A stretch of DNA of 64,000 nucleotides from positions 384,001 to 448,000 of the forward strand of contig CH464491.1 of the NCBI GenBank assembly GCA_000002445.1, in the 5' to 3' direction. Position numbers: made by a program. Origin of the DNA: Trypanosoma brucei (taxonomy: Eukaryota). This document shows, piece after piece, positions 33,001-36,000 of this stretch (the stretch's first letter is position 1; every line of letters starts with the position of its first letter).

Positions 33001-36000
33001 GGTGAATCCAAGTAATAATTAACTTGGAGTAGAAACTCAAGGAGGAGAGGGGAATTATGGGAGGGTTGGAAATGTGCCAAGGAGTGGAGAGGAAACAACA
33101 GGCAGTGACCATGAGGAGGAAGCGGGGAAGGGATGGTGATGAAGTGCATTAACATACTTTGCAGGTGAGATGAGCTCAATGCGCAACAACGATACAAGTG
33201 GAGGCACACCCACAGACATAGGCTCGGAAATAGATGTGCTCAGGTGGAGCCGCTTAATCTCATCTTTCCACATACAAAAGCGATGCAAAAGCGCTCCCAA
33301 CGCCTTCCATCGTCTCACGATGCTCCGCAGTTTGTGAATTCCCTAGACTCGTTTTGTCGAGGAAAGGATGCTGCTTTTTCTTTCTTTCTACTCTCCCACC
33401 CTCTCAACCTTGTTCCTTTTTTTTTCGCTATTGTTCCAAATGTCATCCTTATGTATTATATGTGAAATTAGAACCACTCAGCCGTGCCCACATCATAGGG
33501 GCGTGAATAACCTACTGGAAGGAAGAAGATGCAGACGTGAAACAGCTAAAAGAGACAACAGTTTCAAGAAGGGAAGAAAAGTTTGGGTTATGAACAGTGC
33601 TTGAGACGTCATCTGTTCCTTCACCACTTATCGGCCCTTTTTTTGTTTATTTGTTGCACACGCAAATATACACACACACACAAGCTGAAACGTAGACTAC
33701 TCTGGTTTAATCTGTTGTGAATGTCTTGAAGCCGTTTTTCCGAGAATAAAAGCAGAGAAGGGGGGAAAGCGATCTGAGAAAAACTCGCTCCCCACTCCTA
33801 CTGGCCGTATGATACTCGTACCCTTTTTGTTATGAGCTCTGCTTCGTGTTATTTACCTTTTGTTGCCTGTTTCCTTTCCCGATTTGCCCGGTTTCCTCCA
33901 CACCTTTTCAACTTGTTGTGCTGTTGGACACCCTTTACCATCCTTCGTATTATTTCCCACAATAATAAAAAAGAGGATATGATGTGCAATTCCTTTGTTG
34001 CCCTTTTGGTTTCTCTCGCGTTATCCCGTGGGAGCTTCGCTGATGTGGACGTTGGCGACTCCAAAGGGCGGCCAGCGGATGAGTGCCGCTTATTGGGATT
34101 TGACAAACCTAGTGTTCGTTGTCGTCATTGTACACTCCTGAAGCAGCACACAACAAATTTCACGCTGTATGAAGAGTGTCTGGCTTGCTGTGTAGATGAG
34201 AAGGTCCCACAGCTGTTATGGTACGCCACGGCCCGGTTAGTGGTGAAGAGCAAATCCCGGGACGAACCTGATCGAGAAGTGGATAAATTCTTAGCGAAGT
34301 ATAGGAATAAATTTGGGAACCGCTTACAGGTAGTGAACAGTGCAATTGGGCAACCGACACATCTGATCATGGTGGGCGAACGCGGCACCAGGGATGCGCA
34401 GTGGGTCGTCGAAGACTGGTCGGTAAGCTCTCTGCATGATTACCTGGTGCGGGCGTTCAATATGGAGACGGAGGAACTTTTGTAACATTCCGGAACATGC
34501 TGAAGGAATTGTGGTGCTGTTTTGTTGCCGTTACAGATGTTTGTTGAGCGGTGGCGGTGGGGGGAAAGGTGCTATACGAAATGATGCAGCAGCGACCCGG
34601 ACATACCATTGTAATTTTGTCTCCTCTCCTCTTTCCTCTGACATGTGCCTCCTACTTGTGAATGTTCTTCCTCACTGCTTCTGTTGTGCCTTTGCACGTC
34701 ACATCAAATTTCAATATACATGTCCGATCACTCTCATTATTGTAATTCTTGCTTTTCTCGATTATTGGGTGTTGCTCCTTCTCCTTCACAAGAAGGTATA
34801 ACAACTTTAGCACGACCTTGGAGAGCATTTCGCGAGTTCCATCTCCAATCTTGAGCGTGATTATTTTAGTGTTTTCCCCTGTTTAATTTAAAGTTCCACT
34901 CAAATTTACCTGCGTTACGTGTATATACATAAACGAGTGTCAGTGTTACCGACGAGGGCGAGCGGAAGAAGAAGGGAAAGGGCAAAGAGGAGTGAGATAG
35001 GTTTTTATTTATTTCTTTATCATTTTCGGCCAATTTAAATATAATACGGTATACGGATTTACACCTTTCTACAGCTCGGCGGTCGGCAAGGACAGCGTTT
35101 CGTTCACTGAAGCTACATCAGTGAAGTAAGTTGTTTGCCATAACTTGTTTACCTACTATTGTGCGGCAGAATCATTTTATTCGAACACTATGATGCGCCG
35201 TGCCTTTACGCGGGGTGCATGCGCAGCTCAGTCGTTCAGCATGGTACGCTTTTATACGGATGCCAAAACTGTTCGGCAGCCGCACCGCTACGACCAGGCA
35301 ATCACCGCTGAGAACGAAGTATACATTGAACAGCTGCTCAAACAATACGAACAGAACCCGTGCGAAGTGGACGGCAGTTGGATACCAATTCTTGAGAAAC
35401 TGCGTAGCGGCTCTCCGGATGCGCCTCTCGTGCAGGACTTCACCCGACCGGTGAAAGATGCCCCAAAAAGTGACAGCGAGCGTAGGCAAAGCATGGGCAT
35501 TACTTGGATGGTTACGGCATATGAAAGGTATGGTCATCACTACGCCAAAGTGAATCCTCTCAGGAGTGAGCAAGATGTGGAAAGTGACCGAAGGGACTTG
35601 TTAAATCTTCACTACTCCAACTTCGGTTTCACAGATCAAGACCTTACCAAGGTGTTTCCTGTAGATATTGGTGGTGGCTTAAAGGAGGCTTTTGGTGAGA
35701 ATGTGAAGGAAGCAACTCTGCAGCAAATAGTGGAGAAGCTACAGATGATGTACTGTGGTTCCATTGGATTTGAGTTTCTACTAACTGAGGGTGATGACGT
35801 CCGTCACTGGTTTCACAAGGAAATCTTGAAAACGTTTGAACCCCTTAGCAAGGAAGAACGTATTCACATTTTAGACGACGTGGTGAAAAGTTGTGGCTTT
35901 GAAACCTTCATTCAGCTCAAGTATGGGACGCAGTTGCGTTTCGGTCTTGACGGCGCAGAGGCTCTTGTTCCTGCTGTAATTGCATTGATGCAAGAAGCCA

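Follow-up and report, generated by a model that had tools for sequence, protein, structure and literature searches.

A Sep15-like protein of Trypanosoma brucei without the family's redox motif: a candidate non-catalytic partner of UGGT

Introduction

What does a Sep15 (SELENOF) protein do once its redox site is gone? Debate on the function of this protein centres on that site, which is built on selenocysteine (Sec) or cysteine (Cys). The question is raised by Tb927.11.1440, a gene of Trypanosoma brucei within a stretch of 64,000 nucleotides (assembly GCA_000002445.1, contig CH464491.1, positions 384,001 to 448,000 of the forward strand; hereafter the window, in whose numbering all coordinates are given). 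A sequence-only reading of the window had described its product as a secreted Sep15/SelF-like protein that has lost the redox motif. The Sep15-like identification is itself already public, since a 2026 bioRxiv preprint, the only item returned by targeted literature queries for Tb927.11.1440, reports the likeness, and the UniProt name of entry Q387A8, "Selenoprotein F/M domain-containing protein", expresses it as well. We found no published statement of a clade-wide absence of the redox site, of decay of its loop or of retained UGGT-contact residues, and the function of Sep15 in its complex with UGGT is still called unknown (PMC11348098). Here, we argue with moderate confidence that Tb927.11.1440 is a redox-dead protein of the Sep15 lineage serving as a non-catalytic, UGGT-associated subunit in the endoplasmic reticulum (ER).

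Results

The gene and its product

The open reading frame (ORF) on which this work centres is real: read directly, it spans 507 nt at 33979-34485 on the + strand and encodes 168 amino acids (aa) followed by a TAA stop. The coding sequence and its main parts are the following.

33979..34485, + strand: Sep15/SelF-like coding sequence, Tb927.11.1440, UniProt Q387A8; ORF read directly
33979..34038, + strand: predicted signal peptide, aa 1-20, MMCNSFVALLVSLALSRGSFA before D; hydrophobic core, small residues at -3/-1
34075..34191, + strand: cysteine-rich domain, aa 33-71; six invariant Cys, LGF motif (F41), L54
34192..34221, + strand: inter-domain linker, aa 72-81; model confidence block of 74; pairwise identity 4.6-13.5% in all groups of relatives
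34246..34254, + strand: AAG AGC AAA, encoding K90-S91-K92 in place of the C-x-U/C redox motif

The gene was identified through gene order. Its downstream neighbour at 35190-38213 encodes 2-oxoglutarate dehydrogenase E1, the gene of which is Tb927.11.1450 (PMC8094907), and the ORF is therefore taken to be Tb927.11.1440. The 168-aa product is identical to a T. equiperdum protein of the same length (P0004) and to residues 50-217 of a TREU927 protein (P0003), the 217-aa translation being in turn identical to XP_828235.1 / UniProt Q387A8 of T. b. brucei TREU927. The T. b. gambiense protein differs from that of TREU927 at four residues (V24I, R49G, A68S and E133D), none of which falls on a UGGT-contact position discussed below.

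Profile searches place the protein in the Sep15 family

An exhaustive phmmer search of 1.84 billion representative proteins gave 35 matches at E<=1e-3, mostly full-length and 140-200 aa long. The named kinetoplastid matches come from T. congolense, T. vivax, T. rangeli, Strigomonas culicis and Leptomonas seymouri; the other named ones belong to the euglenid Heteronema vittatum, the green alga Tetraselmis striata and the nematode Strongyloides stercoralis, whose protein is annotated "Selenoprotein F" (E=6.1e-5). Judged by sequence comparison, this similarity to Sep15 proteins is not due to chance. Two matches, P0009 and P0021, were excluded as tandem-repeat translations that accumulate many weak partial matches. 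A word-indexed protein search returned only near-identical T. brucei entries, and a search with the clade profile only three proteins.

The single sequence on its own speaks against the assignment: it matches the Pfam family Sep15_SelM (PF08806) below threshold (E=0.035; 14.6 bits against the 26 bits required), over profile positions 16-70 of 75, that is, beginning past the redox motif. A direct phmmer search of the single protein against the PDB sequences also gave no match, so that profiles were needed. Among the 32 aligned relatives, 27 match Sep15_SelM at E<=0.01, and a profile built from all 32 finds Drosophila Sep15 (2A4H, E=2.6e-17) and mouse SelM (2A2P, E=1.9e-4) in the PDB. As a non-circular test of family membership, we built a profile from the 14 Cys-less sequences alone, for which 2A4H was the sole significant PDB match (E=2.3e-5), SelM being absent from its matches at E<=10. 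Aligned by hhalign with nine Cys-bearing Sep15 proteins, the Cys-less profile scored a probability of 99.85% (E=6e-31), the 135 aligned columns extending through both domains.

Tb927.11.1440 could instead encode a minimal thioredoxin-fold protein of the NDUFA2 / mL43 type (L51_S25_CI-B8), or be a decaying gene, with no kinship to Sep15. The sequence profiles match Sep15 and SelM only, and Pfam L51_S25_CI-B8 matches none of the 32 relatives. The protein also has a signal peptide and the Sep15-specific six-Cys domain, its gene is conserved across kinetoplastids, and the protein has been detected in the ER lumen. In structure searches, the two Sep15/SelM references are at a disadvantage, being ensembles from nuclear magnetic resonance (NMR), a kind of structure that scores lower. 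We regard an origin outside the family as highly improbable, and descent of Tb927.11.1440 from the Sep15/SELENOF lineage as nearly certain. Membership of the Sep15/SelF family in both halves of the protein, as the sequence-only reading had it, is thus borne out by the profile searches and the predicted fold.

The redox motif is replaced and the thioredoxin-like half lacks cysteine

Where human SELENOF carries C-x-U, Tb927.11.1440 reads K-S-K. The register, with K90 at the first Cys and K92 at the Sec/Cys, is agreed by three alignments, made by MAFFT, by hhalign and without gaps from the conserved Y82-A-x-A. In the MAFFT and ungapped alignments, 'YATARLVVKSKSR' lies opposite 'YAGAILEVCGUKL' of human SELENOF; in the hhalign alignment, K90 and K92 fall where Strongyloides SelF has the two redox Cys of its C-E-C. 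With BLASTP, the alignment to human SELENOF is displaced by one residue. By direct reading, residues 72-168 contain no Cys, hence no intact motif elsewhere in the thioredoxin-like fold, and the ORF at 33979-34485 contains no in-frame TGA. The sequence downstream offers no sign of Sec insertion either.

34486..35144, + strand: 3' untranslated region (UTR) or intergenic region without a Sec insertion sequence (SECIS)

Neither SECIS nor any other Rfam family was found at E<=10 in 33700-35200. This fits the selenoproteome reported for kinetoplastids, which consists of SelK, SelT and SelTryp (PMC1557815). The replaced motif, the lack of TGA and Cys, the expected lack of SECIS and the three-protein inventory had all been put forward in the sequence-only reading, and each stands. 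The Fig. S3 legend of the preprint likewise points to cysteines of Sep15 that are unmatched in its alignment (bioRxiv 10.64898/2026.04.03.716285).

With a K-S-K loop and a Cys-free thioredoxin-like half, thiol/selenol-disulfide exchange at that site is not to be expected, and the protein reads as a pseudo-oxidoreductase. We consider Tb927.11.1440 very likely to be redox-inactive; its annotation as a thiol-disulfide oxidoreductase or as a selenoprotein is unwarranted.

The cysteine-rich domain is kept and probably structural

All cysteines of the protein lie upstream, at position 3 in the leader and at positions 36, 48, 51, 67, 70 and 71, the latter six forming the N-terminal block of the mature protein. 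These six, together with G40 of the LGF motif, are invariant in 32/32 aligned relatives. Their arrangement meets the spacing of the Sep15 cysteine-rich domain (CRD), C-x10-11-C-x2-C-x14-15-C-x2-C-C, and the hhalign alignment covers the domain. AlphaFold2, run with the 32-sequence alignment, gave a model of Tb927.11.1440 with a mean predicted local distance difference test (pLDDT) score of 84.9 and the expected order of secondary structure. In this model, residues 31-70 (pLDDT 94-96) are predicted to form three helices (33-38, 48-58 and 61-70), and past the linker strands are predicted at 84-90, 116-121, 128-132 and 138-143 and helices at 100-115 and 149-159. The CRD of human SEP15 consists of three helices and three disulfides (PMC11348098, PMC12363830), with which the predicted three-helix CRD of Tb927.11.1440 agrees. 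Spacing and predicted structure together bear out the earlier view of the six-Cys block as a domain of the UGGT-binding type. The six Cys presumably form three structural disulfides.

Redox activity might nevertheless have been kept by moving into this domain, which has two spacings of the CxxC type, C48-x-x-C51 and C67-x-x-C70-C71. An earlier chemical-synthesis study, as cited in PMC11348098, is described there as having found another disulfide pairing in human SelF that includes C21-C24, which would suit such a move. Every Sep15, however, has these spacings without variation, even where CxU is intact, and they therefore do not amount to a replacement redox motif. In addition, NMR and mass spectrometry on the functional human CRD support three structural disulfides, C10-C42, C21-C43 and C24-C39 (PMC12363830), and the six Cys were reported to be necessary for UGGT binding (PMC7687155). 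Relocated redox chemistry in the CRD is hence unlikely, and we assign it only a small probability.

One further observation concerns the T. brucei CRD, which contains an N-x-T sequon, N-F-T (aa 59-61; 34153-34161). It is absent in T. congolense (HTEATAL) and therefore probably not functionally conserved.

The redox motif is lost across kinetoplastids and its loop is relaxed

The redox motif is absent in all named kinetoplastid orthologues (T. congolense, T. vivax, T. rangeli, Strigomonas and Leptomonas), which likewise have neither CxC nor CxU, in keeping with the loss first read from the T. brucei gene. The euglenid Heteronema keeps C-R-C and the nematode Strongyloides SelF C-E-C. The C-R-C of the euglenid suggests that the motif is probably ancestral within Euglenozoa and was lost on the kinetoplastid branch; being common to the named kinetoplastids and not shared by the euglenid, the loss is an ancient and stable one and not a sign of gene decay. 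The first motif position is without Cys in 21/32 relatives, a share biased by the Cys-less query from which the search set out.

The CRD and the former redox loop differ in how well they are conserved. Mean pairwise identity in the CRD is 42-52% among Cys-less and 43% among Cys-bearing relatives, whereas in the ten residues of the former redox loop it is 6.5-9.5% against 34.5%, a comparison between groups that ignores phylogeny, which counts against our reading, with the CRD as its internal control. Loop length ranges from 11 to 18 residues in Cys-less proteins; it is 13 in 9/10 Cys-bearing ones and 15 in the remaining one (P0019). We read this pattern as a catalytic loop that is relaxed or decayed next to a CRD whose constraint is kept.

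Outside the kinetoplastids, only the first motif Cys is kept in six relatives (P0016, P0018, P0019, P0020, P0027 and P0033, among them Tetraselmis striata), with the single-Cys motifs CKQ, CKH, CKL, CPY, CPR and CPF. Partial loss of the redox pair has thus occurred in these relatives too. In two environmental Sep15 relatives, P0023 and P0037, the redox motif reads C-S-W and C-N-W, the gene caller probably having turned a UGA (Sec) codon into Trp.

The protein resides in the ER

The N-terminus, MMCNSFVALLVSLALSRGSFA followed by DVD, has a short hydrophobic core, FVALLVSLAL (Kyte-Doolittle 2.5-2.9), and then S-F-A before the D. We judged it to be a signal peptide by a heuristic based on hydrophobicity and the type of cleavage site, and the leaders of the aligned relatives are comparable. 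The preprint agrees with this part of the sequence-only reading, its Fig. S3 legend marking a predicted signal peptide for Tb927.11.1440 (bioRxiv 10.64898/2026.04.03.716285). The same work calls the protein a potential Sep15 homologue, similar to Drosophila Sep15, and finds its BiP-TurboID label to be among the strongest in each of the two life stages (bioRxiv 10.64898/2026.04.03.716285, April 2026). According to this literature, Tb927.11.1440 is expressed and resident in the ER lumen, and because of the strong BiP-TurboID label the earlier word "secreted" should be replaced by "ER-resident". UGGT (Tb927.3.4630) also carries the BiP-TurboID label in these data (bioRxiv 10.64898/2026.04.03.716285).

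A conserved C-terminal retrieval tetrapeptide was not found among the orthologues, whose C-termini include EELL, DEQL, KEEP and VIKK. Mammalian SEP15 also has no retrieval signal, and its retention is thought to run through UGGT (PMC11348098).

UGGT-contact residues and the proposed function

In an alignment with the human sequence, which reproduces all of the published residue numbers (C10, C21, C24, C39, C42, C43, U65, W118 and F126), human F15, L27, W118 and F126 correspond to F41, L54, W147 and Y155 of Tb927.11.1440. All four positions are conserved in the relatives: the first holds F or Y, the second L, M, F or V, the third W except in three proteins (F, M and M), and the fourth F or Y except for three with L. 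In the AlphaFold model of human UGGT1/SEP15, which is supported by mutagenesis, F243 of UGGT enters a pocket formed by SEP15 F15 and L27, and W118 and F126 of SEP15 touch the UGGT domain TRXL4 (PMC11348098). T. brucei has a functional UGGT, Tb927.3.4630 (PMC8630539).

In human UGGT1, the helix-loop-helix region that binds SEP15 (F243, F244 and L262) lies between beta-S1 and TRXL1; to our knowledge, fungal UGGTs do not have it. For Tb927.11.1440, we hold partnership with UGGT to be somewhat better supported than its opposite. The protein would enter the ER through its N-terminal signal peptide, and its CRD would dock on UGGT (Tb927.3.4630). The conserved aromatics of the thioredoxin-like domain, W147 and Y155, may add to this contact, and the association would hold the protein in the ER, a mode of retention that we propose because there is no conserved retrieval tetrapeptide. 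Tb927.11.1440 would then be a non-catalytic UGGT accessory that stabilises UGGT or shapes its substrate-facing side near the catalytic domain.

Three points weigh against this proposal. The contact residues were taken from an AlphaFold-multimer prediction for the human proteins, validated by mutagenesis on the UGGT side only; conservation of W147 and Y155 could follow from fold constraint alone; and the strong BiP proximity label is equally compatible with a luminal protein that acts independently of UGGT. The last of these leads to the main rival explanation, namely that the protein, derived from Sep15, has been repurposed as a UGGT-independent factor of the ER lumen, for example a BiP-associated holdase or adaptor, whose CRD is kept for stability or for another partner. 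The sole experimental datum is indeed very strong labelling by BiP and not by UGGT, and loss of the catalytic motif shows that the ancestral job has changed. Knockout of human SEP15, moreover, changes the glucosylation of few UGGT substrates, so that even the canonical protein would have a weak role in connection with UGGT. On the other hand, the CRD, whose sole known function is UGGT binding, is equally conserved in Cys-less and Cys-bearing relatives, the pocket residues F41 and L54 are kept, and no conserved ER-retrieval signal would keep a free soluble protein of 15 kDa in place. We therefore give a UGGT-independent, perhaps BiP-linked role a low though appreciable probability, and continue to favour a UGGT-associated accessory.

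The annotated start codon probably lies too far upstream

A longer in-frame ORF begins at ATG 33832 and yields 217 aa, the model found in the TREU927 and T. b. gambiense annotation; T. equiperdum records carry the 168-aa model.

33832..33978, + strand: in-frame upstream extension, pyrimidine-rich and unconserved, with few AG positions; probably 5' UTR / polypyrimidine trans-splicing signal

The pyrimidine content of this 147-nt extension is 65-85%, and its AG dinucleotides are limited to 33835, 3 nt past the upstream ATG, and 33972/33974. The 49 codons are unconserved in the T. congolense and T. vivax models, and relatives from other taxa start at the signal peptide without any such extension. 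For these reasons, a start at 33979, as originally read, is better than one at 33832. The region 33832-33978 is probably non-coding, part of the 5' UTR or a polypyrimidine tract for trans-splicing, and the 217-aa model, which is probably over-extended, should be cut to 168 aa.

Surroundings of the gene

Among the other features of the window are the following.

30754-33012, + strand: upstream neighbour, three DM10 domains and an EF-hand pair (Pfam E=1.3e-77), an EFHC1/Rib72-type axonemal architecture
39851-44194, + strand: FYVE + Cpn60_TCP1 + PIP5K protein (PIKfyve-type)
44987-46300, + strand: invariant surface glycoprotein of the ISG65/75 family
48389-52105, + strand: receptor-type adenylate cyclase with periplasmic-binding-protein-like ectodomains
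59506-63705, + strand: large leucine-rich-repeat protein

Over positions 1-64000 there are 14 long ORFs (>=200 aa), all on the + strand except for one internal antisense ORF, a bias that fits a single polycistronic transcription unit. In the whole 64 kb, none of the Rfam families reached its gathering score. The stretch of ~7.4 kb at 52106-59505 contains no ORF of at least 200 aa and only scattered ORFs of 100-142 aa on both strands, which makes it an unusually long intergenic or UTR stretch for an otherwise densely coding window. Directly after the stop of a WD40-repeat ORF (25509-28178), a T-rich 23-nt tandem repeat of 3.2 copies occupies 28179-28246 and is probably an ordinary polypyrimidine intergenic tract.

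Discussion

Set beside known proteins, Tb927.11.1440 is closest to Sep15/SELENOF (human O60613, Drosophila 2A4H). It shares with them the signal peptide, the six-Cys domain of the same spacing, the LGF motif, the three helices (predicted here), the short linker, the lack of a KDEL-type signal, residence in the ER lumen and the modelled UGGT-interface residues. It differs from them in its K-S-K loop, in the absence of Cys from the thioredoxin-like domain and of TGA and SECIS from the gene, and in that the loop is poorly conserved and variable in length among kinetoplastids. SelM/SELENOM (2A2P), which has a C-terminal retention signal, differs in lacking the cysteine-rich UGGT-binding domain and in carrying CxxU. 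Other redox-inactive thioredoxin-fold proteins of the ER (PDI b/b', ERp27, ERp29 and the TRXL domains of UGGT) belong to other families, with full thioredoxin topology and no Sep15 CRD. The single-Cys or Cys-less Sep15 relatives of protists and algae, such as that of Tetraselmis striata ('CKQ'), have the same two-domain architecture and have lost the redox pair in part or in full; they are mostly unnamed environmental or transcriptome sequences.

The significance of the finding is limited in that the family assignment is public and redox-dead proteins of the thioredoxin fold are common in the ER. A lineage that keeps the UGGT-binding domain and the interface aromatics while dropping the redox pair nonetheless argues that part of the Sep15 role is non-catalytic. 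With one UGGT, easy reverse genetics and an enormous load of variant surface glycoprotein (VSG), T. brucei offers a clean test system. More tentatively, and as a possibility that we consider doubtful at present, the kinetoplastid Sep15 may be a natural separation-of-function allele, in which the UGGT-binding surfaces have been kept since the split from euglenids and the redox site has been discarded. If this were true, the conserved core role of Sep15 on UGGT would be structural or allosteric rather than a matter of disulfide chemistry: it would stabilise UGGT or shape how clients reach it near the catalytic domain. The question of Sep15 function would then be reframed, in an organism that is open to genetics and has only one UGGT.

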